From a virus (lineage: Duplodnaviria > Caudoviricetes): DNA of 59,957 nt. The stretch spans positions 1 to 59,957 of IMG/VR virus record IMGVR_UViG_3300017774_002371; one strand, given 5' to 3'. The number at the start of each line of letters is the position of its first letter. The stretch's first letter is position 1. A model generated the notes under the pieces. The model made no database searches. It was given only the letters and a program-made list of their open reading frames with translations, and was not told the DNA's origin. The translations under genes were made by a program, and so were the position numbers. Shown here piece by piece: positions 3,279 through 21,600 of this stretch.

Positions 3279-3301
3279 ATCCCCTTCGGTTTCGCAGAGA
3301 G

Positions 3302-3330
3302 AGGCGCACGAAAGTGCGCCTTTTTCTTTT
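3302..3330 (+). terminator. Rho-independent terminator between the convergent gp32 and tape-measure genes
   Basis: AGGCGCAC-GAAA-GTGCGCCT followed by TTTTCTTTT. Confidence 0.85.
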
Positions 3331-5146: not shown

Positions 5147-5175
5147 TTCTCCCCCGTAGGCTCATCTTGAATAGG

Positions 5176-5370: not shown

Positions 5371-6074
5371 TCAGACACGCTCTTCAGTTCCGCTTTCGCG
5401 GGTGTCTTGCAGTGCGGACAGGTGTACTTGAACTCGTAGTGCAGTTCGGGTACAGATTGCAAGTAGTCCATGATCTTGGCAAACTGATCAGGCAGCATAT
5501 TGTCCACGAAGTTTGACAGTTCCTGCGGATTGATGTCTTTTGTTTCGTGAACCTGATCATTCAGTACCACGGACTCAATGCACTTCTTTGCGAGATCAAA
5601 AGCAATCTCCACCTCGTTTTCATCGTGATTGATGTCGTGTATGGACGGATACTGCAGCACAAGTGACAGATTGTCGGTGATCACCACCGTGCCGTCCACT
5701 GCTGGCTTTTCTCGTTGCTTGATGGTGACTTCATCAAGGCGGATCTTGATTGAGGTGTCCTTGCCGCACTTTGCACACACCACTTGCGGCTTTACCTCTT
5801 CGCCCACTGACTTTGATCGTATTTGCAGAAAGGCGTACTCTGCGTCAGCCACGCACAGTCTGCGGGTGTCTGTGGAGTTGTTCGTGCAGGCTAGGATCAC
5901 ATTCCGCATGGCATCGTTTATCTGATTCACGCTTTTTGATTGCAGCGCAACCAGCAGAACCTTTTCTTCCTTTACCACGAAAGGTCGGAACTTCGTGGTG
6001 ATGCCAGATACGGGAAGCGTCATCGTGTACTGCGGCAGAGCCGCATTCGTCAGATTCAGTGTGTTCATATTCAT
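5358..6074 (-). CDS. gp26: Baseplate hub assembly protein / chaperone
   Basis: LPQYTMTLPVSG...FRPFVVKEEKVLL, FLQIRSKSVGE, two CxxC motifs (CAKC, CPHC), and the C-terminus SDFFQ*. Confidence 0.85.
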   Translation of the reverse strand: MNMNTLNLTNAALPQYTMTLPVSGITTKFRPFVVKEEKVLLVALQSKSVNQINDAMRNVILACTNNSTDTRRLCVADAEYAFLQIRSKSVGEEVKPQVVCAKCGKDTSIKIRLDEVTIKQREKPAVDGTVVITDNLSLVLQYPSIHDINHDENEVEIAFDLAKKCIESVVLNDQVHETKDINPQELSNFVDNMLPDQFAKIMDYLQSVPELHYEFKYTCPHCKTPAKAELKSVSDFFQ

Positions 6075-6097
6075 CCTTTAGTCAACAGAGTCAAATG

Positions 6098-6103
6098 TAT
6101 TTA
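6098..6103 (-). promoter_or_regulatory. Candidate late promoter TAAATA upstream of gp26
   Basis: Intergenic CTAAATA on the minus strand. Confidence 0.55.
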
Positions 6104-6107
6104 GTCT

Positions 6108-6821
6108 TCAGCGGGGGGTGTTCATTATGGACTGTATTTTTTGAGGATCGTAGAATCCATTCACGGTTCCATCGTAACCCATCCGATTGATCTGTCCGCC
6201 GTTCGTTGTCAGGAACTGCTGTGGAGCGGGTGGTCCGACAAACTCCTCTGCTACCACCGCAGCAGGACGAGCCAATCCAATGTATTCGGGTGTATATTTT
6301 CTGAAAGCAAGAGTGATATCCTGCTTCAGGAAATCGTTGTCCTTGTCGTATGCCACTTGCAGATCACCGATAGCCTTTGGATACACTTCTTCCACATAGA
6401 AGCGGTGAGCGGGGTCATCTGCTCTCGTCATCACGGCTATTTCCAAGTTCGTCACATAGTCATCGTAATATCCGAACTTGTAGTTGGAGCGGCTGCACAC
6501 AAGATCCATCCAGTCCTCAAAGAACTTGCGCTCACGCAGATCGGCAGACAGTATCACGGATAGGGTCATCTCTCCTGCGTAGATTGGTTCATACGGCATA
6601 TTCCGCGCAGGACCGTAGAAGCGATACGGCGTGGTTGACAGCGAGCGACCAGGTATGGTAATAGAGTCGCACCGCACCATCAGATTCCTGATGAACTGAA
6701 TGTTCGTGGTGCCGAAGCCTGCTGGCGTGTTAATCATCACCTCGTAGCGGTTGCTGAAAGCCAATCCGCTTTGAGTGATGCTGTTTATCAGTTCGTTGAT
6801 GTTTGACGGAACGAATGCCAT
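6108..6821 (-). CDS. Tail-tube-like baseplate protein (gp54-like tube initiator)
   Basis: GLAFSNRYEV, CDSITIPGRSL, ERKFFEDW and VYPKAIGDL indicate the gp19/gp54 tube fold. The main gp19 lies at 48312. Confidence 0.75.
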   Translation of the reverse strand: MAFVPSNINELINSITQSGLAFSNRYEVMINTPAGFGTTNIQFIRNLMVRCDSITIPGRSLSTTPYRFYGPARNMPYEPIYAGEMTLSVILSADLRERKFFEDWMDLVCSRSNYKFGYYDDYVTNLEIAVMTRADDPAHRFYVEEVYPKAIGDLQVAYDKDNDFLKQDITLAFRKYTPEYIGLARPAAVVAEEFVGPPAPQQFLTTNGGQINRMGYDGTVNGFYDPQKIQSIMNTPR

Positions 6822-7412
6822 TTATCTGCCTCCTCGCAATACTTGGCTTCTGCTGTCTCGGTAAACCGTTACTGGTTTTGCCCCGCTGAATCGTGAAGTG
6901 TTGGATGCCACCATATCTTCCCACAGATTGAACGGAACCACTGCGGGTCGCCGTCTCATGCCTTTCCACAGATAGCGTCTGTAGCACGGCTTGAAGTACT
7001 TGAACTGTCTTCGCGCATTCAAACGGTCGTAGTCTACACGCAGACGAGTTCGCCACTCTTCGTTTGCTTTTATTGTCGGTAGACCTCGCATCACCGAGTC
7101 AAACAAGAACTTTCTAAAATCTGGTGCGATGAAGTGCAGATTCACTCCCTCAAATCCCCCTCTGTACACATCCGTTATCAACACCAAAGGGAATGTATCG
7201 TAATATGTATTTCGTGAAACAAAAGAATCGCTGACTGGTTTGTATTTGAAGAAAACCATCTGCCCGTCAAACAAGCGGTTCGGTATGGACAGTTGACCGC
7301 TGTTTTGCAGCATCTTTACAAACTGAATGTATGTCTGATCCGTGGCACCAAGCACAGAGGTGGTTTCTTCTAGTAGTGCCTGCAAGTCAGCCTTCATCTC
7401 GTCTTCTGTCAT
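6822..7412 (-). CDS. gp2: DNA end-protector protein
   Basis: GQMVFFKY, YYDTFPLV, GFEGVNLHFI and KYFKPCYRRYL. Start placed at 7412, giving an ATGA overlap with the gp4 stop. Confidence 0.85.
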   Translation of the reverse strand: MTEDEMKADLQALLEETTSVLGATDQTYIQFVKMLQNSGQLSIPNRLFDGQMVFFKYKPVSDSFVSRNTYYDTFPLVLITDVYRGGFEGVNLHFIAPDFRKFLFDSVMRGLPTIKANEEWRTRLRVDYDRLNARRQFKYFKPCYRRYLWKGMRRRPAVVPFNLWEDMVASNTSRFSGAKPVTVYRDSRSQVLRGGR

Positions 7413-7849
7413 TGGGGTTTCCTGAAGAGGTCGTCTTCGGTCAATATTTTGAACTCCCACCCTTTGGCTTCTGATACCCGTCTAGCCGCGTCCCATTTAG
7501 CCTTGTTGGTGATCCATGTCTGCACTTCCGTGATGTAGCCTCTGGTAATTCGCTTGCGCTTCTCGGGTTCGCGGCACTGCTTCTTGGGCTTGATCTCCAC
7601 CAACCATGTCTTGATGCCTTCGGCGGTGCGTATCTCCACCAAGAAATCAACAAAATACCTATGGGGCTTCTTGTCTAGCGGATTCATGTATGGAATCACC
7701 ACTTCTTCGGATGCCCATCGCAGCACATTTGCACTGCTGTCGCAGAACTTCATAAACTTCCTCTCCCACATACTACGGTAGACGATCTTCGTGGGATCGC
7801 CAATGTATTTGGAAGGGTTGTCTGGCTGAAATTTGCCTTTGTATGCCAT
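7409..7849 (-). CDS. gp4: Head completion protein (nuclease fold)
   Basis: MAYKGKFQPDNPSKYIGDPTKIVYRSMWERKFM...WASEE...HRYFVDF...LVEIKPKKQ...NKAKW is the canonical gp4 pattern. Confidence 0.93.
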   Translation of the reverse strand: MAYKGKFQPDNPSKYIGDPTKIVYRSMWERKFMKFCDSSANVLRWASEEVVIPYMNPLDKKPHRYFVDFLVEIRTAEGIKTWLVEIKPKKQCREPEKRKRITRGYITEVQTWITNKAKWDAARRVSEAKGWEFKILTEDDLFRKPQ

Positions 7850-7862
7850 ACATAAATATGTA
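7849..7862. promoter_or_regulatory. Overlapping divergent late-promoter cores between gp4 and gp48
   Basis: Plus strand has TACATA (7849-7854) and TAAATA (7853-7858); minus strand has TACATA (7862-7857). Confidence 0.55.
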
Positions 7863-7886
7863 GCCGATTTTCAAAAGGAACTGCCC

Positions 7887-9395
7887 ATGTCAGCCATACC
7901 ACAATCCCTTTTTGATCCTGCTTTCAATTCAAGTGGAAAGCCGTTCATTTCCACCAATCGGTACGGCAACGGGCGGTACAGTCAGCAGGTGTACAACGAT
8001 CAGATCGGTGATGAGGTTCTGCGACAACTAGAGGGAACTCCGAAAGTGACCCGAGGCTCCCGCATTCGCCCATCGGTTCTACGGTATCCCATAGACCTCG
8101 GAAGCGCACAAGTTCCCCATGTCATGCAGTTCAAGGTTTTCTGGCGGTGGGAAGCCAAGGACTTGCGGCAGGGATTGGAAAATGCCAAGGCGGAATCCCA
8201 AAAGAACATTCAGAATTTGCAAACGCTGTCTGGACTCATAGATGGTGGTGATATCACGCCAGAGTCGCTGTATCGTTCCCCGCTCAGCAACGAGAACATT
8301 GCTGCTCTTGAGAGCATGGTGCTTGATCCCAACACCCTGAAGATCGTGGATCCGAACGGAACAGACAGCATTGCGACCCTGTTGCAGACGAATCCTGGTA
8401 AAGCCAGGCAGATACTAGAGCAGACGATTATTTCAGAGCAGACCCGACTGTCTAGCATTGAATCGGAACTGAACAATGGCACAGGCAAGGTAGGCATGGA
8501 TGAACAGGAGCGGCTGCTTGTACAGAATCGTCTGAATGAAAACATTGAGCGAACAGGCGTGGGTGAGTCCGCAGTGAAGGGCGCGGGAGCAGGAGCGGTC
8601 ACGGGCGGATTGCTCGGTTTTCTTCTTGGTGGAGGAAAAGGTGCCGCAATCGGAGCGGCTGCGGGTGGAGCAGCAGGAGCAGGACTGGCTGCTGGCGGCG
8701 TTGCACTTGCGAAGAACTTTGCAACGGAAGCGGTATACGATCAGATGGTTTCGGTATATCTCCCGTTCTGCACGAAGGTAAACAACGAAGATTCTTTTGT
8801 CTATGAGGACAGCAATCAGGCAGCAGCAGGCGCAGTGTTTGATGCGCTTGGTGGCGATGTGTCCACTGTGGCAGGACAGGCTGTCGGGGTAGGCGCACAG
8901 TTGATCGGGGACAAATTTGCGCCAGGTGCTGTTCAGGCAGCGCGAGGCACGGTCATCAATCCGCGTCTTGAAAAACTGTTTAGGCAGAAAGACTTCAGAA
9001 ACTTCTCTTTCTCTTGGGAGTTCTATCCGCGCAACAGGACTGAAGTGGATGCCATACGGGACATCATTGAAACATTCCGTTACCATGCCCATCCTGCGAT
9101 GAGCGATCAGCAGGGAACGGCGGAAGAGAACAAAGTTCAGATCATACTGCGTACTCCTGGCGAGTTTGAAATTAGGTTCTTGTCGTCCAATCCTGATCCC
9201 AATTCCGCAGGCTTCGTAGAAAACGAATACCTACCAAAGATCGGCAGATGTTCTCTCGTCAGCATAGCGATTGACTATACACCAAACTCCATATTCAGCA
9301 CATTCGCAGACAACTCACCCACCGCAGTCACGATGACTCTCAACTTCAGCGAGTTGGGTCTGCTCACCCGCGAAACGGTAGATAAGGGCTTCTAA
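7887..9395 (+). CDS. gp48: Baseplate tail-tube cap protein, extended
   Basis: LRYPIDL near the N-terminus. C-terminal NPRLEKLF...FRNFSFSWEFYPRNRTE...IIETFRYHAHP...IDYTPN...MTLNFSEL. AAGGA SD precedes the ATG at 7887. Confidence 0.85.
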   Translation: MSAIPQSLFDPAFNSSGKPFISTNRYGNGRYSQQVYNDQIGDEVLRQLEGTPKVTRGSRIRPSVLRYPIDLGSAQVPHVMQFKVFWRWEAKDLRQGLENAKAESQKNIQNLQTLSGLIDGGDITPESLYRSPLSNENIAALESMVLDPNTLKIVDPNGTDSIATLLQTNPGKARQILEQTIISEQTRLSSIESELNNGTGKVGMDEQERLLVQNRLNENIERTGVGESAVKGAGAGAVTGGLLGFLLGGGKGAAIGAAAGGAAGAGLAAGGVALAKNFATEAVYDQMVSVYLPFCTKVNNEDSFVYEDSNQAAAGAVFDALGGDVSTVAGQAVGVGAQLIGDKFAPGAVQAARGTVINPRLEKLFRQKDFRNFSFSWEFYPRNRTEVDAIRDIIETFRYHAHPAMSDQQGTAEENKVQIILRTPGEFEIRFLSSNPDPNSAGFVENEYLPKIGRCSLVSIAIDYTPNSIFSTFADNSPTAVTMTLNFSELGLLTRETVDKGF

Positions 9396-10303
9396 TGGCT
9401 TACTTCTCAAAGTTTCCAATATTGCAGTATCCTGTTCGGGACGGCAATCAATTCAGGTTTGCGTTCGTGGCAAACTTGCTGCGCCGCGTTGGATTGAGTC
9501 AAGAACTCAAAGGCACGGACGGCGCATTCATTGAATATAACATCAAGGACGGAGAGCGTCCCGAACACATTGCGGAGCGGGTATACGGTGATCCGTCATT
9601 TCACTGGTTAGTGATGATGACGAATGACATTGTGGATCCGTATCACGGTTGGTACAAGTCGGGAAGCGCGATGGAGCAGTATGTGCAGACAAAATATGGC
9701 AACAAGTCCGTGTTCATCGGCACTACGGCTGATGGATATTTCTACCGTCAGTACATCGGCACGGGTTCCTCGCTTTCGCAAGGCTCCATTTCTTCGGATG
9801 TGATTGACTACACCCCTACGCTTTGCCGACTTACTGTTCGCGGTGGCGAGTTTCAGGAAGGAACCGCCACTATCAGGGTGAGCGGCGCAACCGCCTACGA
9901 AGTTCAGATATTCCGCGTTGATCCGTCCATCACCGCCGTGCATCATTTTGAGTTTCAGCACAGCAGCGGTATCTGTGCTGCAAACGATGAGTTCACGGTA
10001 GACCCCTTGAGTCAGCAGAACTCAAGTTTTTCGCGGGTTGGGGGCGTGATCGGCTTCACAGCAGACGAGTATCCACAGACAACGCAAGGCATAATATATC
10101 AGTCCACCGCAGGAATCGTTGATTTCTGGGAAACTTATATTGGTAGGTACATGGGCGTGTCGGGTGCCAAAGTTGAAACCTTTGCCATCAGCAACTTGAA
10201 GTATGAAAACACGATGAACGATCAGAAGAGAACCATCAAGATACTGCATCCTCGCTACAAGAGAGAAGCACTTGCTCAACTAGAGGCACTGTTGAGGGTA
10301 TAA
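9395..10303 (+). CDS. gp53: Baseplate wedge subunit
   Basis: MAYFSKFPILQY, LysM-like YNIKDGERPEHIAERVYGD..FHWLVMMTNDIVDPY, and C-terminal YE...NDQKRTIKIL. Confidence 0.9.
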   Translation: MAYFSKFPILQYPVRDGNQFRFAFVANLLRRVGLSQELKGTDGAFIEYNIKDGERPEHIAERVYGDPSFHWLVMMTNDIVDPYHGWYKSGSAMEQYVQTKYGNKSVFIGTTADGYFYRQYIGTGSSLSQGSISSDVIDYTPTLCRLTVRGGEFQEGTATIRVSGATAYEVQIFRVDPSITAVHHFEFQHSSGICAANDEFTVDPLSQQNSSFSRVGGVIGFTADEYPQTTQGIIYQSTAGIVDFWETYIGRYMGVSGAKVETFAISNLKYENTMNDQKRTIKILHPRYKREALAQLEALLRV

Positions 10304-10304
10304 A

Positions 10305-11627
10305 ATGGCAGACCACGGCAATGACATCCTATCAGCAGGAAACTATGTCCTTGACAGAATGTCCATGCATTCTCTTGTCAGCGGCAAGCAGTTGGACTTG
10401 CGAAACCTGTTCAAGAGGATAGAGATTTACGAAGACCTGTTCTCTCCTTACACCACCGCAAAGGTGTATGTGGAAGATGCCCACAACTTTCCCGAGAGGT
10501 TTCCGATCACGGGACAGGAAAAGATAGAGATAGCCTTCAAGACGGATGTGAATGCCTTGCCTATGGTGGAACTCGTGTTTCGCCTGTACAAGTTGGATGG
10601 ACACAAGATTTCCGAAAATGGCAAGTCGCAGGAGTATGTGCTGCATCTCATCAGTGAAGGCGGATACATGAACTTTTCCCAATACTGCGGTTACGCGGTG
10701 AACGGAACGGTTTCGGGAATGGTGGGAACAGTTTTCCGCAAGCACTTCCCTGAAACGGTATGGAAGGATCGTCTTGAAATCCAGCCCACGAAGGACAACT
10801 ACTCGCTGGTGCTGTCTGGTGCATACACGCCGTTCAAGGCTGTGAGTTGGCTCACTTCTCGCGCTCTTACCACGACAGGCAAAGAGTACAGTCCGTTCAT
10901 GTTCTATGAAACCCTTGACGGTCACCGCTTCAAGAGCCTGTCTTCCATCATTGAAGCAGGATCTAAAAATCCCATCACATACCTGTACACCATCGGCAAC
11001 ATCGGAACCGCAGAAGGCACAAAGCAGGAACTCGGGTTCAGCAGCGTTCTGCCCAATCGGTATCACAAGATTCAGAAACTAGAGGAACTATCACGATTTG
11101 ATGCGGCTGAAAACATCATAACAGGTCTGGTTGCTTCTCGTATGCAGGTTCACGATCTGGTAAGAAAAGAAGATCGTCATATGCAGTTCTACGAGGGAGA
11201 TGTTTTTGATTCCATGAAGAAGTTGGGCGATGTGCAGAGAATCCGAAAAGGTGATGCACCACTAGAAAATGCATTGAAGACTGGTGGAGCGTATTTCTAT
11301 ATGCCGTCTACTCCGTACACCGTACACACAAAGGGAAATCAGATCATTGACAATTTCCAAACCGAGTCGGTGTTCTTGAAGCGCAAGTATCACATGAATG
11401 CGTTCCTCACGCAGAAACTGGTGATGCAGGTTTTTGGAGACAGTCGCCGCCGCATTGGTGATGTGGTTCGCATTCGGGTTCCCAAGCCGCAGTCGGATGT
11501 CACGGCGATTCAGGATCGGGATGACAAGAACCTGAGCGGCGAGTACTTGGTGACAAGCATCAAGCACACTCTCGGTACGGCGTATTCTTGCAAGATGGAA
11601 CTGTCTAGAAACGGCATGGGGGTGTAA
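10305..11627 (+). CDS. Baseplate hub protein (gp27-like)
   Basis: IEIYEDLFSP, PITGQEKI, FMFYETLDG..FKSL and LSGEYLVTSIKH. The gene lies between gp53 and gp5. Confidence 0.7.
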   Translation: MADHGNDILSAGNYVLDRMSMHSLVSGKQLDLRNLFKRIEIYEDLFSPYTTAKVYVEDAHNFPERFPITGQEKIEIAFKTDVNALPMVELVFRLYKLDGHKISENGKSQEYVLHLISEGGYMNFSQYCGYAVNGTVSGMVGTVFRKHFPETVWKDRLEIQPTKDNYSLVLSGAYTPFKAVSWLTSRALTTTGKEYSPFMFYETLDGHRFKSLSSIIEAGSKNPITYLYTIGNIGTAEGTKQELGFSSVLPNRYHKIQKLEELSRFDAAENIITGLVASRMQVHDLVRKEDRHMQFYEGDVFDSMKKLGDVQRIRKGDAPLENALKTGGAYFYMPSTPYTVHTKGNQIIDNFQTESVFLKRKYHMNAFLTQKLVMQVFGDSRRRIGDVVRIRVPKPQSDVTAIQDRDDKNLSGEYLVTSIKHTLGTAYSCKMELSRNGMGV

Positions 11628-12736
11628 TGTCAGGATTCCTAGGAAAAGACGGATTCGTGTGGTGGCACGGCGTTGTAGAGGATGTGGGCGATCCCTTGTA
11701 TCTTGGGCGATGCCGCGTCCGTGTTTACGGATTCCATGTCCGCGACAAGACTGAACTGCCGACCGAATGCCTGCCGTGGGCATATCCCATGCAGCCCATC
11801 ACCAGTGCTGCTCTTTCAGGAATAGGGCAGTCTCCCACGGGACTGCTTGTGGGTTCCCATGTGTTCGGATTTTTCCGAGACGGCGAGGACGCACAGGATC
11901 CCGTGATCATCGGATCTTTCGGCGGTGTTCCACTGAAGGAAGCCGATGTAACGAAAGGCTTTGCGGATGGAAGCGGTCGGTATCCCGCAAAGCAGAACGA
12001 TGTGGACGACGAGAAGTTTCCTCTTGGTGTGTCCGTGATCGGAGAACAGGACACGAACCGCCTTGCGCGAAACAGCGACAAGGAGCAGATGAAGTCCACT
12101 GTCGCGGCGTACAAGACTTCAACGGTACAGAAGGACATCCAAAGCACGCCAGACATCAAGGGCGCATTCAAGTGGAGCGAGCCGTCCACTCCGTATGCAG
12201 CAGAATATCCGAAGAATCATGTTCGCTACACCGAGAGCGGACATATTGAGGAGTGGGACGACACGCCAGGCGCGGAGCGGATACACCATTTTCACAAGTC
12301 AGGATCATTCACCGAAATCGGAAATGGATGGGAAACAAGTCCAGACGGGACTCGCGTACAGCGGATCGTGGGCGATGATTACGAAATCGTACACGGCAAC
12401 AAGAAGATCCACATATCAGGCAGCGAAGGCTTGAACCTTGTCGTTGACGGTGCCATAAATCTCACCATCAACGGTGGCGGCAACATACAGATAAACGGAA
12501 ATACGAACATACTGGCAAGCAACGATGTGAATCTTCAGATTGAGGGTGCGCTGAAGGCATCAGGCAAGCAGATGGAGTTCTATGCTGACGGAGACATTGG
12601 ATTCTCGGGACGCTCCATATCTTTCATCACCGACAGCAATGTCATGGTGTTGCAGCAAGGCAAACGCATTGAAGTAAACTCTGGCAAGCCAGCGGTCACT
12701 CCGACACGGGTTGATGTAAAGGGAGGCGGCTCTTGA
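11627..12736 (+). CDS. gp5: Baseplate central spike (OB-fold plus beta-helix, no lysozyme domain)
   Basis: FVWWHGVVED..DP..LGRCRVR.YG.H...LPWA...GSHVFGFFRDG...QDP, then YPKNHV..TESGHI.E.DDTPGAERIH and beta-helix repeats (VDGAINLTINGGGNIQINGN). Confidence 0.92.
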   Translation: MSGFLGKDGFVWWHGVVEDVGDPLYLGRCRVRVYGFHVRDKTELPTECLPWAYPMQPITSAALSGIGQSPTGLLVGSHVFGFFRDGEDAQDPVIIGSFGGVPLKEADVTKGFADGSGRYPAKQNDVDDEKFPLGVSVIGEQDTNRLARNSDKEQMKSTVAAYKTSTVQKDIQSTPDIKGAFKWSEPSTPYAAEYPKNHVRYTESGHIEEWDDTPGAERIHHFHKSGSFTEIGNGWETSPDGTRVQRIVGDDYEIVHGNKKIHISGSEGLNLVVDGAINLTINGGGNIQINGNTNILASNDVNLQIEGALKASGKQMEFYADGDIGFSGRSISFITDSNVMVLQQGKRIEVNSGKPAVTPTRVDVKGGGS

Positions 12737-12942
12737 ACTACAGAGGAAGACACCGAAAGTATGTGGAAGGCTCGTCCAACTACGAGGTCTATGTGTACGG
12801 CGATGTCGTGGAGCGAAACGGTGTTTCGTATGTGTGTAATGTCACCGAGACATCGGGATACATTCCCGAAGATGCGGGTTCTGGCTTTGTAGTATTGGGT
12901 GATCGTCTTGGAACCACAGTGATTGAAGGCGGAACATATTAA
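12733..12942 (+). CDS. Small hypothetical protein, possibly a carbohydrate-binding-type module
   Basis: The TTG start overlaps the gp5 stop and has a GGAGG SD. Y.YGDVV.RNG..Y.C resembles CBM5/12-type motifs, and the protein ends IEGGTY. Confidence 0.55.
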   Translation: MNYRGRHRKYVEGSSNYEVYVYGDVVERNGVSYVCNVTETSGYIPEDAGSGFVVLGDRLGTTVIEGGTY

Positions 12943-12951
12943 GGAGTTGTA

Positions 12952-14958
12952 ATGCCAGGCAATGGAGTTTCTAGAGCATATCTTGACACGGCGGGCGGCA
13001 CGATTCAGGTCGGCAACCCAGATTTTTTCTTGGATGGCTTGCCTGTAGCCGTTCAGGGAAATCCCGTTCAGAGTCACGGCAAAAACGAACACAGCAATGC
13101 AGTGATGCTAAACGGCACTCCGAGTTTCCTGATTAACGGTATTCCTGTATGCACATCTGCAAGCCAAGCCAGTTGCGGACACCAAGCCACTGGTTCGTCC
13201 ACATTCACGGTCGGAACATCAAGCAGAGGAACGGAAAGCAGAAATCCTGGTGTTGCTCCACAGTTTTCTTATACTCCTCCCGAGACTCCGCGACCGATAT
13301 GGGTCGGAACATGGCACGCTCCCGTTTCTGGACGGACACGAAGTCTTGCAGCAGAACTATTAACCGATGCAGATTTTACCACATATGAATATGTGAAGCC
13401 ATTGATATGGCTCACTGCTCCGAACTCATCATCATCTTACATTGATGATCCTGCTCAACAGTATCAGACGAAGATTGGCACATCAACTCCCTACAGGAAC
13501 AGGATGAATGCCATAGTGAATGGCTTGAACAAACTGCCCGAAGGAATGCGAGGATTGGCTCCGTGGTACTATTGGAACGGATATCTGTACTACGAAAATC
13601 CCACAAAAAAACGCTCGGATATTGATACTTTTTTGGCAAACAACCCAACAGAGTCTCCTGGCGACTACAACACACATCCTTCGGATTATCGTGATGGCAC
13701 GAACGGCATATTCTTGTTCAACCGCAAATCAGACAGCATTCGTGGTTCTGGCTGGACACTTGCATCTATATGGGGAGCAACGGCAGTCAATCAGGTGTAT
13801 CAGGATTGGAAAGTCATGTGTTCTCTGTTGAAGACTCGTGGAGCAAACATAGACTATCTTGTTTTTGACAGCGAAGGGTTTCCTGGAAATGGATTCACGG
13901 ATTATCCTGTGGGTCAACGACAAGCAGCATTTCAGACAATGGAGAGCAGTCCTCTTGCACAGCAGGAGTGGTATGGAGCAAGACCGCTGCTCACCGTTCT
14001 TAAGCAGGACGGAAAATACCCAACAAACAGTGCAGCACAGGTTGCAGCAGATCGGCATCCGCAAAGATCACCCAGTTACATTTACTGGAACGGTGGATTG
14101 GGTTCCATACGAAACGCAAGCATGACCTATTGTTTCTATGAAACAGCAAAAGCACTCTATCCTGAAATAGGGTTGAGCAATTACGAATCATTCAAGGTCA
14201 ACGACAAAGACTGGGGATATGAACCGAATGGGCATCCCGTGTTTCAAGAAAATGCAGTCGGTGACGGATCTGCCCCATATTTGTATGCATCTTGGAACAA
14301 CGATACTGCTTGGGTAATTGATCCATACGATGATACCCGCATAATAAGAAACGATACAAACACTCAAACGAGTATTCTGCCCAAATTCACGAACAGCATA
14401 TGGAATTGCTTTTTGCTTGATGTTCAGTTGGTGCGTTCCATAAAACGAGCAGATTCCGATTCCAAACTTCGTCCCTGGATTCGTCCGCGTGGGTGGGCAG
14501 GAGATGCTGGATTTAAGGTAGGCATCACTGCTGGACAACCTACTTCTCCGCAAAGCGGCGAAAGATTTTACTATGAAGTGGTTCGTCATGCCTGTGTAAG
14601 CGGAGTAGAGCATTTTTATTGGTGGAATACTCCAAATAGTGATCCTGCAACTGATCCGTCTTATTTGCAGAGAGACTGCGAAGAGATGAATGAGATATTG
14701 ACCGAAGCCAATGACTTGCTTGGCGGCTTCTCGCCAGAAGTGGTTACGAAAAGTCGCATTTCCTTCAAGACGGATTATGTGGTAAGCGGCACGAAAGCAG
14801 CAGGCGGCGACAATGCTGGCAAGTATGTTTGGAGAATAACCCCAAAGCCTGGTCTGACGCTCATAAGCGAAACAGGAAGACCGCTCACAGTTGATTCCGA
14901 TGGTGGCGCGTGGCTCGTTACATCGTCTGTCATCATACCTAAATATTCTGTTCAATAA
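12952..14958 (+). CDS. PAAR spike-tip protein (gp5.4-like) with a large enzyme-like C-terminal extension
   Basis: The N-terminal ~88 aa has the PAAR pattern (G.PVAVQGNPVQSHG..EH...GTPSFLINGIPVC...ASCGH..TGS) with His/Cys metal ligands. A Pro-rich linker and ~560 aa of aromatic-rich globular sequence follow. AAGGAG SD. Confidence 0.85.
   Translation: MPGNGVSRAYLDTAGGTIQVGNPDFFLDGLPVAVQGNPVQSHGKNEHSNAVMLNGTPSFLINGIPVCTSASQASCGHQATGSSTFTVGTSSRGTESRNPGVAPQFSYTPPETPRPIWVGTWHAPVSGRTRSLAAELLTDADFTTYEYVKPLIWLTAPNSSSSYIDDPAQQYQTKIGTSTPYRNRMNAIVNGLNKLPEGMRGLAPWYYWNGYLYYENPTKKRSDIDTFLANNPTESPGDYNTHPSDYRDGTNGIFLFNRKSDSIRGSGWTLASIWGATAVNQVYQDWKVMCSLLKTRGANIDYLVFDSEGFPGNGFTDYPVGQRQAAFQTMESSPLAQQEWYGARPLLTVLKQDGKYPTNSAAQVAADRHPQRSPSYIYWNGGLGSIRNASMTYCFYETAKALYPEIGLSNYESFKVNDKDWGYEPNGHPVFQENAVGDGSAPYLYASWNNDTAWVIDPYDDTRIIRNDTNTQTSILPKFTNSIWNCFLLDVQLVRSIKRADSDSKLRPWIRPRGWAGDAGFKVGITAGQPTSPQSGERFYYEVVRHACVSGVEHFYWWNTPNSDPATDPSYLQRDCEEMNEILTEANDLLGGFSPEVVTKSRISFKTDYVVSGTKAAGGDNAGKYVWRITPKPGLTLISETGRPLTVDSDGGAWLVTSSVIIPKYSVQ
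14940..14945 (+). promoter_or_regulatory. Candidate late promoter TAAATA
   Basis: CTAAATA 23 nt upstream of the ATG at 14969. Confidence 0.45.
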
Positions 14959-14968
14959 AGGAGAGCGT

Positions 14969-15760
14969 ATGGCAGACTGCCCGTGCAAGCAAACCCTGAC
15001 TGATGGCGAAAAGGGAATTCTCAATTTCGGATTGACGAACGAGATGTTGCGTAATCCGAACGCAGCGGCTATTGGGTTGTATCGTCAGTTGGGTGGGGCA
15101 AACGGCGCACGGATAGAATCGCTCATACAGGCTGCACAGGTGGGGGGTTCCACTAATGCGCTTACCACCGCACTTCCCGAACTCAATCGGGTAAAAGGTG
15201 CAATTAATGTGCTTGACAACCGCGTTGATGCTTTTGAGAACGAGTGCAAGCGTTTCACGGATCCCAATCAGTTGATCAACATCATCAGTTCGTTGAGCCT
15301 GTTTGCGGAAATGCAGTGCGCTCTAGGAATAGAAGGTCTGGACATCGGCGTTGGTCTGAATGTCGTGAATCAGAACGGTCAGTTGTCCATCAACTACGCG
15401 GTCGCGGCAAATGTGGATCTTGAAAAAATACTGAATCAGTTTTCCGACAACAATCTTGGAACCGCAACCGCCGATACCGTGAGGCAGTTGCAGGAAGGAC
15501 TTGGCAAGGCGGTGGGCGCACTGGATGCTGTCAACGGCGAAATCGCGGGTCTGATGAATGCAGCAGAAGCCCTACAGAACCAGGCAGCAGACTTTATTCA
15601 AAAATATACGAGCATCAACGCGCTCGCCAATCTTATAAATGAGGCAATCACCGATCCGTGCTTCAAGTTGGGCAGCACGCTGAACGGCAGTCTTGTGAGT
15701 TCAGATTTCCTTAATGCAGTTCGGGGAGGATACTCGCCTGGATTTGGAGGCTACCGATGA
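14969..15760 (+). CDS. Hypothetical helical protein
   Basis: AAGGAG SD precedes the ATG at 14969 (MADCPCKQ...). Ala/Asn/Gln/Leu-rich, with several Cys. Confidence 0.7.
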   Translation: MADCPCKQTLTDGEKGILNFGLTNEMLRNPNAAAIGLYRQLGGANGARIESLIQAAQVGGSTNALTTALPELNRVKGAINVLDNRVDAFENECKRFTDPNQLINIISSLSLFAEMQCALGIEGLDIGVGLNVVNQNGQLSINYAVAANVDLEKILNQFSDNNLGTATADTVRQLQEGLGKAVGALDAVNGEIAGLMNAAEALQNQAADFIQKYTSINALANLINEAITDPCFKLGSTLNGSLVSSDFLNAVRGGYSPGFGGYR

Positions 15761-16419
15761 AAGATGCTGCTGATTTTTTGAGTTCTTTCAGGGACTTTGC
15801 CCTTGCATTCGGAGAACTGCTCGGGGTGCTACTTGCTGGCATAGGAATTGGTGCATGGGGAATCCTGCGTAAAAAGAAAACCATGTGGAGTCCGCAGAAG
15901 GAGCGGCGGTTCGTGGAAGCCCACACCCAAATACACGAAATGCTGACTGAACTGCGGGTCACGGTTCGCGCCTGCCGTTGCTTGATCTTTCAGTTCCACA
16001 ACGGTGGTTCATTCGCGGATGGAACCTCCATCAAGCGGTTTTCGGTGACCCATGAGTCCTGCGCCACCCCCGCGCAGAGCATGATTCTTGAATCGCAGGA
16101 TGTGCTGCTCACGCGATACATGGATATCGTTCCCATCATGGAAGAACGGGCAGGGAAAATAATACAGGTTGACACCCTACAGCCCTCCGCATTTCGTTCT
16201 GGACTTGAGATAAATAGCGTAGAATACTTCAGTGTCGTACCGCTGAAGTGCATGGACGGACTTACTCCGATGGGATTCCTGTGCTGCCACTGGTGTTCGG
16301 CGGATTCGCTGGATGGGATTGAGAAGGAAGGCATCACGCAGCAGTCGTTGGAGCAGTTGATAGAAGACAGCACACAGAACATAAACGCACACCTGTCATA
16401 CAATCAGGGAAATAAGTAA
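15757..16419 (+). CDS. Single-pass membrane protein with a GAF-like soluble domain (holin T-like candidate)
   Basis: Hydrophobic LLGVLLAGIGIGAWGIL followed by RKKK, then LTELRVTVRACRCLIFQFHNG...SVTHE...SVVPL...PMGFLCC, which is a GAF-like pattern. Confidence 0.5.
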   Translation: MKDAADFLSSFRDFALAFGELLGVLLAGIGIGAWGILRKKKTMWSPQKERRFVEAHTQIHEMLTELRVTVRACRCLIFQFHNGGSFADGTSIKRFSVTHESCATPAQSMILESQDVLLTRYMDIVPIMEERAGKIIQVDTLQPSAFRSGLEINSVEYFSVVPLKCMDGLTPMGFLCCHWCSADSLDGIEKEGITQQSLEQLIEDSTQNINAHLSYNQGNK

Positions 16420-16829
16420 TGGCACTACGGATAACGAGCAACAGCACCAAGCCAGTATTCTCTGACATAGACCCGAACTTTACGCGCAGTCCAAAGACAA
16501 ACGACTTGCTCACAGTTCGGGACGATGGTGCTGTCCGTTTGGCACTGAAGTGCCTGCTGTCAACATCTTTCGGAGAGCGGCTGTTTCAGCCCACCATCGG
16601 CGGATCACTTCGTCCGCTCTTGTTTGAACCCATTGATGCCATCACCACGATGGAAATACGCGACCGCATCTTGCAAACTATCAACCGCCATGAGCCACGA
16701 GTCGGAAATGTGCTGGTTGATGTGATTGCCAATCCTGATCAGAACTACTACACCGTCAATGTTGAATATTCCGTGATAGGCGTTGGAAAAACCGACAGGG
16801 TATCTGTCGTACTAGAAAGGCTGCGCTGA
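16419..16829 (+). CDS. gp25: Baseplate wedge subunit
   Basis: FSDIDPNF, AVRLALKCLLST..GERLFQPTIG..L..LLFEP and INRHEPRV. Confidence 0.93.
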   Translation: MALRITSNSTKPVFSDIDPNFTRSPKTNDLLTVRDDGAVRLALKCLLSTSFGERLFQPTIGGSLRPLLFEPIDAITTMEIRDRILQTINRHEPRVGNVLVDVIANPDQNYYTVNVEYSVIGVGKTDRVSVVLERLR

Positions 16830-18646
16830 TGGCTAACACGAACAGTTTCAACATTGTGGGTCTTGACTTTGATGACGCAAAATCGTCATTGAAGGCGTTC
16901 TTGCAGTCGCAGGAAACGCTGAAAGACTACAACTTTGACGGGTCGGTGCTGTCTACGGTGCTTGATGTGCTGGCGTACAACACCCACTATCAGGCGTTCT
17001 ACGCAAACATGGTGGCAAACGAGATGTTCCTTGACAGCGCGGCTCTTCGTCCATCCGTTGTCTCTCATGCAAAGACTCTTGGATATGTTCCGACATCGCG
17101 CCGATCAGCAAAAGCCGTGCTTGGCATCTCTGCCGCTGGCGCATCGGAAAGCACCTATCTTGCGCGTGGATCCGAGTTCGTGGGAACGGATCTTGCAGGA
17201 ACACAGTACCGATTCGTGCTGCTTGACACCGTTTACGCAAACTCCGAAACGCAGCAGTTTGAGGATGTAGAGGTCTACGAGGGAACCCTGCGCCGCATGA
17301 GTTATGTGTATGACCCAACGAAGAAGCCGTCTTCCGTGCTGCTCATACCGAACGACAAGATTGACACTAGCACCATCAAGGTGCGCGTGAAGGCTTCGGC
17401 AAACGACAACACAGGCATAGAGGACACATGGACATATTCGGAATCGTATATTGACCTGACACCCACTTCAAAGGTGTTCTTCCTTCAGGAGAAGGAGTCG
17501 GGGATGTATGAACTGTTCTTTGGTGACGATTTCCTCGGTCAGCAGCCAGATGCAGGAAACATCGTGATCGTGGAGTATCTTGAAACAAACGGTGATGAAG
17601 GCAACGGCATTGAATCGTTCACATCCAATATTGCTGGTCTTGGAAACATCGGCGTGGTCAGCGCATCCTCTGGCGGTGCATTGGAAGAGAGTGTTTCTAA
17701 GATCAAATTCCTTGCTCCTCGCTTCTACCAATCGCAGAATCGTGCGGTAACAGAGGATGATTATACCTCTGCGGTGATCAAGGACTATCCTGCTGCCGAT
17801 TCCGTGTATGTGTATGGGGGTGAAACGGTAACGCCTCCACAGTACGGCAAGGTGTTTGTTGCCGTGAAGCCGCGCACGGGAACCGCACTCACCACGGAAG
17901 AGAAGCGCAGTCTTGCAAAAACGCTGAAGGAAAACCGCTCGGTGGTCACGGTCACTCCCGAAATCGTGGATCCCGACTACATTGACTTGGTAGTTGATTC
18001 GCTTGTCACATACGATCCCACCCGCACCTCGTTGGGAATCGGAACGCTGAAGGCTCTCATGGTGGCGTACATCTTCACATATTCTGCCACCACACTTGAG
18101 CGATTCGGTTCAAACTTCTACCTGTCCAAACTCACGGAAGGACTGAACCGCCTTGACTCGTCCATCTTGAGCAATGACACGAAGATCAAGATCCGCAAGA
18201 CAGTGAACTTGAGCAAACTGGTGCTGTCAAAGGGATTCACCGTGGATTTCAGAAATCCGCTGTATCATCCCCACAGCGGTCACTCTACGATTGTGTCGTC
18301 TTCCACATTCTCCCATGTAGACACCGATGGGATCGTCATCAGCGATGTTTTCGTGAATGATGACGGCAATGGAATACTGAATCTCGTTGCAAAGAACAGC
18401 GGCGGCACGATCTACACCGTGTATCCGCGCATTGGAACCGTGGACTACGACAACGGAAAGATCGCATTCAACTCGGCGTTCGCTCCCGTAAGCACATCGG
18501 TGCTGTTCACGATCACCGTAGAGCCACGCAACGAGGACATCTTCGTGTTTGAGAACAAGATCGTGCGGATCAACAGAGGCTACTCTGATTCCGTGAAGTT
18601 GAGCGTTCAGTCGCAAACGAACCGCAAGCAGAACCTGAAAGCGTAA
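16829..18646 (+). CDS. gp6: Baseplate wedge subunit
   Basis: LDFDDAK..LK.FL..Q...DYNFDGS.LS..LDVLAYNTHY...ANM..NEMFLDSA..R.SVVSHAK.LGY.P, QNRAVTEDDY and PPQYGKVF. Confidence 0.96.
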   Translation: MANTNSFNIVGLDFDDAKSSLKAFLQSQETLKDYNFDGSVLSTVLDVLAYNTHYQAFYANMVANEMFLDSAALRPSVVSHAKTLGYVPTSRRSAKAVLGISAAGASESTYLARGSEFVGTDLAGTQYRFVLLDTVYANSETQQFEDVEVYEGTLRRMSYVYDPTKKPSSVLLIPNDKIDTSTIKVRVKASANDNTGIEDTWTYSESYIDLTPTSKVFFLQEKESGMYELFFGDDFLGQQPDAGNIVIVEYLETNGDEGNGIESFTSNIAGLGNIGVVSASSGGALEESVSKIKFLAPRFYQSQNRAVTEDDYTSAVIKDYPAADSVYVYGGETVTPPQYGKVFVAVKPRTGTALTTEEKRSLAKTLKENRSVVTVTPEIVDPDYIDLVVDSLVTYDPTRTSLGIGTLKALMVAYIFTYSATTLERFGSNFYLSKLTEGLNRLDSSILSNDTKIKIRKTVNLSKLVLSKGFTVDFRNPLYHPHSGHSTIVSSSTFSHVDTDGIVISDVFVNDDGNGILNLVAKNSGGTIYTVYPRIGTVDYDNGKIAFNSAFAPVSTSVLFTITVEPRNEDIFVFENKIVRINRGYSDSVKLSVQSQTNRKQNLKA

Positions 18647-18649
18647 TAG

Positions 18650-21600
18650 ATGGATCCCAAGAACATAATCCTCAATACCGAAGCCGAGGCACTGGAAGAC
18701 ATACTGTCTCCGTTTATCGAAGAGCAGTTTCCGTCTTTCATTCGCACGGACTATCGGAAACTTGTCCTGTTCATCAAGGCATACTACGAGTGGCTTGATC
18801 AAAAGGACAACGCGGGATATGTGCTTGGCAAGTTGGACACGATCTACGATTCAGACCGCAGCCTTGACGAGTTCTACTCGCACTTCAAGAACACCTATCT
18901 GCTCACCTTCCCCGAAGTGCTTGCCACCAATCCAAGCGGAAACAAGCCGAACAAGAACACCCTTCTGAAGAAGATCCGTGACTTCTACGGAAACAAGGGA
19001 ACGGAGAGCGCGTACAAGTTCCTGTTCCGCATACTGTACGACAGCGACCTTGAGATTTACTATCCAAAGGAAGACATCCTGAAGGTTTCGGACGGACAGT
19101 GGGTGGAACCAAAATCCGTCAAGACCACTTCTTCCAACGGATCGGCACTTTTCGGCGGCAACAACGGACAACTCAATCAGTATTCTGGAACGCAACTCGT
19201 TGCCAGTGCTTTCATTGAGAGCGTTGTGCAGTACTCGTTCAACGGATTGCCTGTCACCGAGTTCTTCATTTCCGACATCAACGGCACCTTCCTGCCTGGT
19301 CAGGAAGTGTATATTGCGAACGGTGACGAGGAGTGGAAGGAAGTTGCGTACTCCGTGCTTGGAGATTTCTTTGTTGAGAATGCTGGTGAGGGATACCGCA
19401 TAGGAGACACCGCGACCGTCATTGATGCAAGCGGCGTGGGCTTCTCTGCAAAGATTGACCAAGTGAGTTTTGCGGGTGGTGTCAAGAAGATCGGCATTGC
19501 AAACTCGGGAATCAACTACTCTGGCGACCTTGTGCTGAACATCTTTAGCGAGAGCGGAGCGCAATCTGCTCGGGTGCTTGCGGTTCGCAGTGCTGTCACA
19601 AACTATCCTGGATACTTTGCAGGAAATCGCGGCAAGATTTCTTCTAACAAGAAGATACAGGACGGACATTACTACCAAGACTTCTCGTATGTGCTGAAGG
19701 GCGAAGTCTCGTTTGAGATATATTTTGACCTGCTGAAGAGCATCATTCACCCTGCTGGCATGAGGATGTTTGGATCGGTGCTGTTCAAGAGCGAGTTGAA
19801 CAATGTTCTGACCTCTTCTGCCCAAGCCATATATTACGAAGTTCCCGTGATTGGGCGGTACACGCCGTACACCACTGGCACGACCATTGACCTGCGAAAC
19901 AACGGCGTGACCGCAAGCGGTTACTGGTTGGGCGCAACAGGCGACCTGTATCCGCTTGGATACAACCCGTACATCGGCAGCACCACACAGGTTGGACCAA
20001 ACGGCACCACCACCGCGCTCGGCACTGTGTTCGTGGGATCATCCTTGGGCTACACTTGGTGTTATGTTCCCGAAGGCGGCAGAACTTCACATAATCCCAT
20101 CGGCGCACCGCTCGGCAGCACCGCTTCTTGGCGGCTTGGTCACGAACGCGGACCAGAACCCAACACTATTTCTGGTCTCGTCTTGTGGTTGAAGCCCGAG
20201 AACATCGGTGTGTGCGGTGCTGTGGCAAACGGTGCGAGTGCCGATGTGTGGCGAGACGCCTCCCCGTCAAGAAATGACGCGATGCCACCGACATGGGATC
20301 GGTGGAACGGTGTGGCGCACATCACACACACCGCAAACACCACTACTGTTTGGACGCGACAGGTATACGACAACACAAATCCTGTTACTAAAATAGCCTT
20401 TGTCTTTAATGGTTTGTGTGGAGGATTCACGCAGGGAAGGCTTTGTATGGTTGGACTGAATCCCGCTTCGGATGTAGCCAATGCATCGTATATTCCTGGA
20501 AATTGGGTGTATTCAAGAGGTCCATTTTCAACTCAACCTACTGCTCCGAGAAGAATTTTTTATATAAACTATGATGCAAGCGGAAACAACGATTCGGTTA
20601 GTGAAATTTCTCCCACACTAGATGGATACGACAATTCCGTGTTTGAGATAGAGTATGTTGAACCAAACCTGATTTGGAGAAAAGATGGTGTTGTAAAGCG
20701 CGAAAGGTTTGTTGGATATGGACAGACATTTTACATGGATTCCAGTTTTTATCTGGAGACAGCAGACGCAAGTAGAACAGGTCACTCTGTAACCATCACA
20801 GAACTTTCGTACAACGGAAATCCTGTAACCCCCACATTTAATGTATCTTCAGGTATAGATGTGAGAACTTATAGAGGAGTCACCGTTGACAAACTGCGTC
20901 CCACCCTGCAAACAGCAGGATTCGGTGGTGCAACAGGCATTTCGTTCAACGGTGGAATCGTGTTTGCTCCTGCTTCCGTGTACGCGGGTGCGACCCTCGG
21001 TGGCGTGGTTGGACTCGGATACACCACAGGCACTGGCAGCAGTGCTGCTGCAATGCTCACGGGACAGCACCTATACCTCAAGCGTCCACTGAAGATCACC
21101 AATGATGCAGACATTTTCGTGGTATACAAATCCACCCGTGACGGCTTGAGTTTTGGATATGGGCTGCTTGGATCACGCAACACGAACTGTGATCTTTCGG
21201 CTAATCCATCTGTGCGGTTTGACTCGGTGCTGTTCAGTAGGTCTTACAACGAACAGGACAGAACAGCCGCACAGCAGACGAGTGCGTACTACAGCATTCT
21301 TCCCAATGGCACGGTGATGTATCCTGGCGCATCTCTACCGCCAGCAGGAGTGTTTGGGTTCCGTCCATACGGCGATCAGACAGGAGTGCTTCAGAACACC
21401 ATTGTGTACGATCCCCATGTGTCGGGAGCGTGCTTGGGCATCTGTGTCGGAGAAGCCGTTCGTGACTCTGAAAACAAGATTGATGTGTTCCTCAACGGCG
21501 ATCAGGGACTGAACAAGTCGCGCTCTACTGGACGCAGGGTTGCTTCTGTGTCTCCTCCAAACACGGAAGACTATTTGATTTCCAAGAATCTGATATATTC

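Follow-up and report, generated by a model that had tools for sequence, protein, structure and literature searches.

What is a large and apparently enzyme-like domain doing on the tip of a phage tail spike? The question is raised by a gene on a 59,957-bp viral record in IMG/VR (the window in what follows, by which we mean the whole stretch of DNA analysed; estimated completeness 33%). The gene (12952-14958, + strand) occupies the gp5.4 position in a T4-like baseplate module and is a single 668-aa open reading frame (ORF) with an ATG start and, in the ORF listing, no internal stops. Its product appears to be laid out as a PAAR cone (residues 1-88), a Pro-rich linker, a (beta/alpha)8 barrel and a C-terminal beta-sandwich. 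The answer that we favour, and to which our models and comparisons would give slightly better than even chances, is that a freshwater T4-like myovirus carries on its spike tip a module that binds, and probably cleaves, a glycan of the host envelope.

A preliminary description, made from the sequence alone, had the ORF running without a stop from the PAAR domain through a Pro-rich linker into a cargo of about 580 residues, called the cargo more AT-rich than its flanks, and named a missed stop or frameshift after the PAAR domain as the danger to this picture. The picture has held up well. The cargo comprises residues 89-668 and is rich in Trp, Tyr and Asn after the linker, and the difference in composition is real but modest (GC 0.45-0.47 across 13250-14750 vs 0.50-0.56 in the flanks). 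The frame was checked with contigs, not raw reads, from four runs of four public freshwater metagenome studies, aligned on 12700-15100, and no inserted or deleted letter was found in that interval in the contigs of the four runs. Contigs of 80,219 and 16,145 nucleotides each span the interval whole, with 88 substitutions and no gaps, a 2,081-nucleotide contig covers 13129-15100 with 75 substitutions and zero gaps, and four contigs from one run show no differences at all from the same stretch. Furthermore, full-length PAAR-cargo homologues with the frame kept are found on many viral contigs, at 96%, 75-76%, 69%, 40% and 24-29% cargo identity. Given the indel-free contigs from four studies and the full-length homologues elsewhere, a missed stop or frameshift is very unlikely; the 668-aa ORF is real and conserved. 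In the assembly of one run (X12), several alternative contigs of 41-103 nucleotides lie at 13008-13158, within the PAAR domain, with longer contigs on either side, a break pattern that suggests co-occurring variants in that sample.

The first 88 residues (12952-13215, +) are assigned to the PAAR cone from Pfam, PDB and ligand conservation, and stand-alone relatives stop at this point. Residues 13-76 match the Pfam family PAAR_motif (PF05488) with 33 bits against a cut-off of 27 (37.6 bits in a DNA search), the PAAR part matches PHROG 281 (E 3.8e-15), and residues 5-88 align with the phiKZ spike-tip protein gp163.1 (PDB 6p1z; E 1.6e-14), which is the closest PAAR. The complete domain with His/His/Cys-Gly-His ligands that had been proposed earlier is borne out, as five aligned PAARs of the same subtype all have H42, H47, C75 and H77, and these residues also align with gp163.1. 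As judged from the alignment, this set fits the pattern of T4 gp5.4, whose metal site is described in extracts of one report as three His and one Cys (PMC12407873). A 'phospholipase' label that stands under phiKZ-like PAAR matches was followed up and belongs to an 88-aa PAAR gene only, not to an extended PAAR. One PAAR was counted on the window record and one on each of four of the five related records, the fifth (a 13.5-kb fragment) having none; all of these records are fragments.

A complex predicted between the PAAR part and the C-terminal trimer of gp5 scored 0.35, against 0.02 for the best control, with at least 68% contact agreement between runs and a partner pLDDT (predicted local distance difference test) of at least 80. 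Of 78 solved complexes, 51 reach the mark used, as do 2 of 108 mismatched pairs, and the scores of 0.60 or less that passed include only five of the 78 solved complexes, plus all four mismatches that passed. Solved gp5-PAAR complexes exist, and likeness to them may explain the pass. Docking of the PAAR part on the gp5 trimer is weakly supported by this model.

Beyond the cone lies a Ser/Gly/Pro-rich linker (residues 89-115; 13216-13296, +), which is absent from stand-alone PAARs and contains the Pro-rich segment NPGVAPQFSYTPPETPRP at residues 98-115; it is read from the sequence, and cargo residues 1-5 have a pLDDT below 50. For the rest of the cargo, an alignment of six sequences (A2) gave a model with a pLDDT of 42.6, which was unusable, and it was replaced by one of 53 sequences (A3). 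The resulting AlphaFold2 model (pLDDT 84.9; predicted template modelling score, pTM, 0.89) has eight strand-helix units followed by a beta-sandwich. The predicted barrel, for which fold matches and conservation also speak, comprises residues 116-590 (13297-14721, +). The remainder of the gene (14722-14958, +) encodes a short connector, the sandwich (residues ~609-668, with strands at cargo positions 508-566 and a pLDDT of 91-97) and the stop codon.

Comparison of this model with known structures pointed consistently to carbohydrate-active enzymes. Foldseek returned 25 PDB matches at E<=1e-3, with TM-scores of only 0.14-0.39, and those listed are carbohydrate-active proteins with a triosephosphate isomerase (TIM) barrel: glycoside hydrolase (GH) families GH36, GH35, GH56 (hyaluronidase) and GH13, as well as Cwp19, alpha-agarase and PslG. 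With VIA-align, run against 48,161 representatives, GH42 enzymes came first, at Z 13-15.1 overall (4uzs, Z 15.1, root-mean-square deviation 4.7 over 377 aligned residues; 4ucf, Z 14.5, 394 aligned; 1kwk, Z 14.1), followed by GH164 (Z 13-13.9; 6t5o, 13.9), GH35 (Z 12-12.7; 7kmn, 12.7) and GH5, and, at about Z 11, by PgaB, a GH18 chitinase (3fnd, Z 11.2), Cwp19 and a hyaluronidase (2atm, Z 11.0). The chitinase and hyaluronidases thus rank below GH42, the GH56 hyaluronidase 1fcq having a Foldseek E of 3.9e-4, and sequence identity with the fold matches is 8-12%. The ESM Atlas neighbours are bacterial clusters without a name and others called GH42-N-like, GH_cat and GHL10, and we treat them as leads only. 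The viral fold library BFVD held nothing close, only weak GH-like matches (three at E<=1e-3, TM-scores 0.22-0.26), and the one beta-helix depolymerase in its list ranked low (E 0.05, probability 0.23). The preliminary description had guessed at a TIM-barrel GH-like domain and had looked to AlphaFold and Foldseek to decide whether the extension has an enzyme-like fold. The model supports the guess: it is a (beta/alpha)8 barrel, and all of its strong matches are TIM-barrel glycoside hydrolases.

In sequence searches the cargo (residues 102-668) had no match in Pfam (E<=0.01), PHROGs or NCBIfam (E<=1), and nothing significant was found among PDB sequences with either the single protein or a profile (best profile E 0.013, to an unrelated repeat protein). 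When 50,697 phage records were searched with tblastn, 65 records matched through the PAAR part only and none through the cargo. A six-sequence cargo profile searched against 1.84 billion representatives defined a family with no fewer than 353 representatives at E<=1e-3, of which 153 reach E<=1e-10 and 51 reach E<=1e-30; they are 66-4,412 aa long and mostly align to profile positions ~160-557. In 53 members the shared domain matches no Pfam family and, at E<=1e-3, no GH family. PAAR, the T4 neck protein, SLH and CBM_4_9 each occur as a partner domain in single members, long members also bear CBM_4_9, heparinase II/III C-terminal and RCC1 domains, and no PAAR was found outside the window's clade among the 150 family representatives listed (phmmer, E<=1). 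Four subgroups (P0051-P0128; ~460-590 aa) have hydrophobic N-termini that resemble signal peptides by eye, whereas the phage-like subgroups do not, and these four are presumably secreted bacterial enzymes. Scans of genome contigs (alignments A2 and A5) and of metagenome contigs (A5) gave no relative. On the model, the cargo has a GH-type (beta/alpha)8 fold and belongs, as a diverged member, to a large family that is uncurated.

The 53-member alignment also offers a candidate active site. The acids concerned are D261, D306 (13867-13869) and E308 (13873-13875); D306-x-E308 immediately follows a predicted barrel strand (cargo positions 201-204), and D306 and E308 are each kept in 48 of the 53 members. 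Conserved residues at or just after predicted strand ends are W121, D306/E308, N410/Y411, Y445, W509 and N559; D261, D301, H428, R495, E542 and H546 are conserved as well, and W627, R628, G652 and W654 of the sandwich are invariant, or nearly so, across the family. E542 and H546, which are invariant in all 53 members, were considered as catalytic residues and provisionally rejected, both lying about nine residues into the predicted helix alpha-7. In clan GH-A, the acid/base Glu ends strand 4 and the nucleophile Glu ends strand 7. In GH18 and GH56, which act on N-acetylhexosamine (HexNAc) substrates by a substrate-assisted mechanism, a D-x-E motif is found on strand 4, together with aromatic residues on strands 6-8. 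In the cargo, with strands taken from the secondary-structure string, W509 is conserved after strand 7 (LRPWI) and no acid is. As the alignment shows no conserved nucleophile on strand 7, a single-acid or substrate-assisted mechanism appears likelier than the double displacement of clan GH-A.

The window protein has D306-S-E308, Y445 and W509, but not every family member keeps the motif. A second group (L013, L015, L012 and P0023) has D-x-P-P-G-E/D instead, so that E308 is replaced by Pro and an acid stands three residues on, and in P0126, a homologue fused to a neck protein, D306 and E308 are replaced by Asn and Val (N-x-V). Since E308 is replaced in the second PAAR-fused clade, D-x-E is not a signature of the whole family. 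The earlier proposal of a D-x-E acid pair at a strand end is therefore sound for the window protein and for the 48 members that keep each acid, and does not extend to that second clade. A GH-type TIM barrel of an uncurated family, with an acid centre on strand 4, is the probable reading of the model and its conserved residues.

How unusual is the extension among close relatives? A scan of IMG/VR with the PAAR alignment gave 61 viral loci whose PAARs are 39-100% identical to that of the window. The PAAR ORF is stand-alone in 54 of these (77-90 aa from the match start), and the stand-alone proteins end at the equivalent of window residue 88, with F-x-V/I-G followed by a stop. The other seven PAARs are extended, and in all seven the extension matches the cargo profile. 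The search for the same PAAR with no extension or a different one, suggested in the preliminary description, therefore found many bare PAARs and no extension outside the cargo family. The 54 stand-alone loci share the order gp5, 69-aa ORF, PAAR, 264-aa gene, 220-aa gene, and in most of them the 264-aa gene begins a few bases past the PAAR stop. From these comparisons the stand-alone PAAR is the majority form in syntenic relatives, and the fusion is derived. No gene of the GH-like cargo family was found in flanks of up to 4.5 kb around the 54 stand-alone PAARs; an unfused arrangement such as that of L003, described below, is thus uncommon in the PAAR subtype of the window.

A tree of gp5 was used to place the fusions. 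It has 39 rows, leaving out those with less than 85% gp5 coverage, identical sequences and L013 (no gp5 on the contig); its root was set at the midpoint, and the branch to L003 is long. The label 'fused' needs two changes on this tree, and well-supported branches force two. One fused clade is that of the window (four rows, 100/100) and the other lineage, L046 (the L015 contig), is nested among stand-alone forms (100/98); the two fused clades bear different cargo subfamilies, which are 24-29% identical. The tree points to at least two gains or losses of the fusion, and the history of gp5 may differ from that of the PAAR locus through recombination.

Against a close relative of the window, L008, the barrel stands out as a unit of exchange. 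The 11.2-kb baseplate module of L008 is 91.7% identical overall to that of the window, and nucleotide identity is 88-100% up to ~13320, only 43-78% over 13321-14700 (+) and 92-98% from 14701. Identity between the two is 100% in the PAAR, 98% in gp5 and 69% in the cargo; the corresponding values for L015 are 72%, 80% and 24%. Synonymous divergence (dS) from L008 is ~2.3 in the barrel (residues 119-583), as against 0.11 in the PAAR and linker, 0.28 in the sandwich and 0.08-0.26 in the neighbouring genes, and the ratio of non-synonymous to synonymous change (dN/dS) in the barrel is ~0.12, which is purifying selection. The sequence comparison indicates that phages which are otherwise nearly identical have exchanged the barrel as a cassette. 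From the dS profile and dN/dS together, it would be an old functional allele recombined between conserved arms, not a fast-evolving or decaying domain.

The domain is also found away from the PAAR. In L003, it is part of a 1,438-aa protein without a PAAR (7212-11528 of that contig), whose gene is flanked by gp5 and by the gene of a stand-alone 95-aa PAAR from another subtype (11592-11879). The 1,438-aa protein has no Pfam or PHROG family match and appears to consist of an N-terminal part of ~260 aa, the GH-like domain and a second domain of ~600 aa rich in Trp, Tyr and Asn; the upstream gp5 of L003 (598 aa) has a long Ser/Thr/Ala-rich tail. In L013, a PAAR-cargo protein is extended by ~600 further residues. 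Elsewhere, the domain forms residues 1071-1564 of a 1,645-aa protein in the gp7 position after gp6 (L014, 2722-7659), it stands as a 524-aa copy between gp15 and the small terminase subunit (L012, 2486-4060), and in P0126 it is fused to a T4 neck protein (PF11649, E 2.5e-41). These placements argue for a recurrent module of T4-like virions at exterior positions.

We can now state the favoured reading, a glycan-directed module on the spike tip, as a mechanism. A flexible Pro-rich linker and a GH-like module of ~550 aa would prolong an ordinary 88-aa PAAR cone in frame. As a single PAAR would cap the gp5 beta-helix trimer, each virion would carry one copy of the module, tethered beside the cone on the tail axis below the baseplate. 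There it would bind, and probably cleave, a variable envelope polysaccharide (capsule, exopolysaccharide, O-antigen or S-layer glycan) at the site of the spike strike, before or during sheath contraction. The catalytic centre would most likely be formed by the acids that end barrel strand 4 (D306/E308), with D261 nearby, and the swapping of barrel alleles would retune specificity. The glycan-related fusions among homologues (CBM_4_9, heparinase II/III C-terminal and SLH) count in favour of this mechanism.

Several points weigh against it. The conserved residues were assigned to a pocket from the secondary-structure string and not from three-dimensional geometry, and no GH family can be assigned, because the Foldseek TM-scores are low and Z values of 11-15 are common to many TIM barrels. 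Some members of the family may be non-catalytic, given the altered D306/E308, and the score for PAAR docking on gp5 (0.35) is only weakly supportive. The record is 33% of a genome, so that a second, stand-alone PAAR could lie elsewhere. A globular domain of 60 kDa beside the tip might hinder membrane piercing, and the cassette exchange could be neutral mosaicism instead of selected retargeting.

Among the alternatives, the one that survives best is that of a peptidoglycan-degrading enzyme, taken into the periplasm on the tip in place of a lysozyme domain missing from gp5, so that the function of T4 gp5 would simply have moved. We regard this as unlikely, but with a real chance of being right. 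The gp5-like central spike of the window (11627-12736, +; 369 aa, with an OB domain and a C-terminal beta-helix by Pfam and PHROG) matches Pfam Gp5_OB at residues 40-168 (E 7e-27) and no lysozyme family (Pfam, E<=0.01), and of the PHROG profiles of the hub and tail lysozyme only an N-terminal part (14-136 of 868) and a C-terminal part (505-647 of 855) match it. Among cultured phages, it has single-piece tblastn matches in Vibrio nt-1-like phage, Acidovorax ACP17 and a Variovorax phage, and two-piece matches around an insert in Cronobacter S13, Aeromonas phiAS5 and Melnitz. The fold matches of the cargo do include Cwp19 (5oq3; Foldseek E 1.2e-4, Z 11.1-11.4) and the cortex-lytic SleL (Z 10.7), the D-x-E on strand 4 is reminiscent of the HexNAc-directed GH18 and GH56, and large domains are moved across outer membranes by type VI secretion system (T6SS) PAAR proteins. 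The highest-ranking fold matches, however, are GH42, GH164 and GH35 and not lysozymes. Moreover, since 54 of the 61 syntenic relatives, with gp5 proteins 45-82% identical to that of the window, manage with a bare PAAR, the extension is not needed to offset a gp5 without lysozyme. A conserved target such as peptidoglycan also sits badly with a barrel that varies more than any other element of the module and is swapped as a cassette, and the neck and wedge proteins that bear the same domain never enter the periplasm. For these last three reasons, an envelope glycan is preferred to peptidoglycan as the target.

A lectin-like TIM barrel without catalytic activity, which would bind a surface glycan at the tail axis and serve, for example, in triggering or positioning, much as the tail-needle knob of a podovirus might, is on the whole improbable; with the acid motif varying as it does, it is still a rival to be taken seriously. 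Receptor-binding parts typically show the cassette exchange and the extreme divergence from the flanks that are seen here, D-x-E is changed in several phage members, the family has no conserved acid on strand 7, and the fold matches include catalytically dead TIM-barrel lectins (imaginal disc growth factor, 1jne, Z 10.9). Against this, the window protein has both D306 and E308, as do 48 of the 53 members for each acid, apparently secreted bacterial ones included, and the clades that lack E308 keep an acid three residues on. A barrel dN/dS of ~0.12, together with the many conserved polar and aromatic residues at strand ends, also fits an active site.

It is very improbable that the cargo is an injected effector, acting on a cytoplasmic or periplasmic glycoconjugate for take-over of the host or against competitors, and so a true counterpart of T6SS toxins. 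The architecture is the same as in the specialised PAAR effectors of T6SS, and this part of the preliminary description, which had called the protein a phage analogue of them, stands: a PAAR, a linker and a C-terminal, apparently enzyme-like domain are all present. An equivalence of role does not fare as well. There is no evident immunity-like gene, the next genes being baseplate-module genes that are also present where the extension is not, and the bacterial homologues appear secreted (by eye) or SLH-anchored, with no PAAR among the 150 representatives listed. As the same domain is found elsewhere at the neck and the baseplate wedge, positions that are not injected, it is better seen as a glycan module of the virion surface than as an injected effector.

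Finally, an artefact, in which two genes were joined through a sequencing or assembly error or in a chimeric contig, found no positive support and is practically negligible, for although the window is a metagenomic contig whose frame was checked with other contigs and not with raw reads, the assemblies of four studies have no indel over 12700-15100 and in-frame fused homologues occur on many contigs at 96, 76, 69, 40 and 24-29% identity.

The surroundings of the gene are those of a phage baseplate: its neighbours are phage gp53, gp5, gp25, gp6, tail-cap and fibre genes and not genes of T6SS or of extracellular contractile injection systems (eCIS). Upstream of gp5 lie genes for a tail-tube cap-like protein (7833-9395), a gp53-like protein (9395-10303) and a PHROG-350 tail protein (10305-11627). 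Between gp5 and the PAAR gene is a small ORF (12733-12942, +; 69 aa) whose TTG start overlaps the gp5 stop. It matches Pfam CBM_5_12 with E 2.4e-5 and 24.7 bits, just below the cut-off of 26.2, and it is conserved at 53-97% in the same position in most related viral loci; this conservation between gp5 and the PAAR gene argues for a real small gene of the spike region. The 264-aa gene directly 3' of the PAAR gene (14966-15760, +) adjoins it in nearly all related loci, including those where the PAAR has no extension, and has no tblastn match in L003. Its product has no Pfam or PHROG family, a PhaP-like match (E 3e-4) falling far below the cut-off. It is followed by the 220-aa gene of the baseplate module (15757-16419, +), placed by conserved synteny, by gp25 (16419-16829) and by gp6 (16829-18646), whose closest counterparts in cultured phages are those of Pelagibacter, Methylophilales and cyanobacterial myoviruses (33-38% identity).

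Further downstream, a gp7-like protein of 1,612 aa (18650-23488, +) ends in a Laminin_G_3 (ConA-like lectin/glucanase) domain. Other large baseplate and fibre proteins of the window are one of 1,650 aa with DUF4815 (26422-31374, +), one of 794 aa with a phage tail collar domain (33534-35918, +) and one of 620 aa with another Laminin_G_3 (39313-41175, +); for another three long ORFs, of 788, 652 and 1,085 aa, Pfam gave no match. In L001, four extra ORFs (119, 214, 211 and 964 aa; 2930-7499 of that contig) separate the PAAR-cargo gene from the pair of gp5 and small ORF. Neither Pfam nor PHROG gave a match for the 964-aa protein, and the 211-aa protein weakly matches a virion structural PHROG. 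The interval between gp5 and PAAR looks like an insertion hot spot.

In the literature, phage PAAR tips are described, in the extracts of two reports, as small stand-alone cones (PMC7824862, PMC12407873), and the PAARs of jumbo myoviruses, in the passages concerned, as occurring alone with no effector domain attached (Iyer et al., 2021, PMC7824862). The T6SS 'specialised' effectors are PAARs with covalent C-terminal domains (Shneider et al., 2013, as cited in extracts of later work). A PAAR domain within a predicted tail fibre of a jumbo phage is mentioned in part of one report (PMC12173070), and viruses contribute 0.36% of the PAARs in a census, as given in excerpt, a share that may include extended forms (PMC8651086). 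We found no described phage PAAR-glycosidase fusion in this literature, in which the supplementary tables of the census (PMC8651086) could list extended viral PAARs. Effector-bearing PAARs have been treated as an innovation of T6SS and eCIS, and here a natural phage PAAR bears a large, apparently enzyme-like domain, for which the comparisons speak clearly of repeated addition to a stand-alone ancestor and of swapping as a cassette.

A bolder proposal, which we consider possible but on balance doubtful, is that in freshwater T4-like myoviruses the PAAR tip serves as a docking point for exchangeable glycanase cassettes. The module would be a single axial active copy from an uncurated GH-like family without a strand-7 nucleophile, and it would cut a host-specific polysaccharide at the strike site and so determine host range. 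It would have been gained at least twice on a stand-alone PAAR and would exist in an unfused 'cargo' form too, the specialised and cargo logic of T6SS having evolved independently in phages. If the module is an active glycanase, it would represent a new position for a phage depolymerase (one monomeric copy, on the tail axis), a new way of approaching host range in the abundant T4-like phages of freshwater and an entry to a GH-like family of at least 353 representative clusters outside the copies of Pfam, NCBIfam and PHROG that were searched. It also offers a natural template for loading cargo on the spike tips of phages and tailocins.

Compared with known systems, the window protein is closest at its N-terminus to phiKZ gp163.1 and T4 gp5.4, since its first 88 residues align end to end with gp163.1, the ligands are kept and the gene lies downstream of gp5; it differs in running for 580 residues more than these proteins of ~88-100 aa. 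Like the specialised PAARs of T6SS, it puts cone, linker and a large, enzyme-like domain on one polypeptide, and the separate protein of L003, encoded between gp5 and a stand-alone PAAR, parallels the T6SS 'cargo' mode. Unlike T6SS and eCIS effectors, it is encoded in a phage baseplate operon without an evident immunity gene, and its glycosidase-like barrel recurs on neck and wedge proteins. T4 gp5, like other tail-associated lysins of central spikes, also carries an enzyme-type domain on the central spike of a contractile tail, but in T4 the lysozyme-fold enzyme lies within gp5 and is present in three copies, whereas here one predicted TIM barrel would sit on a monomeric tip protein. Clan GH-A (GH42, GH164 and GH35) provides the best fold matches, over nearly the whole model, and likewise combines a TIM barrel with a C-terminal beta-sandwich; by the predicted strands the cargo has an acid that ends strand 4. 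The cargo differs in that it has no sequence membership and that no conserved acid is seen at strand 7, where the clan has its nucleophile. In proposed function, the nearest analogues are the depolymerases of tailspikes and fibres, which are likewise virion-borne, polysaccharide-directed and exchangeable. The classical ones are trimeric beta-helix spikes, several to a baseplate and placed at its periphery, whereas the model here is of a monomeric TIM barrel with a beta-sandwich, probably in a single axial copy. A variable globular domain at the tip of a piercing device is also found in the tail-needle knob of the Sf6 type, which has a trimeric fold like that of tumour necrosis factor and belongs to the non-contractile tail of a podovirus.

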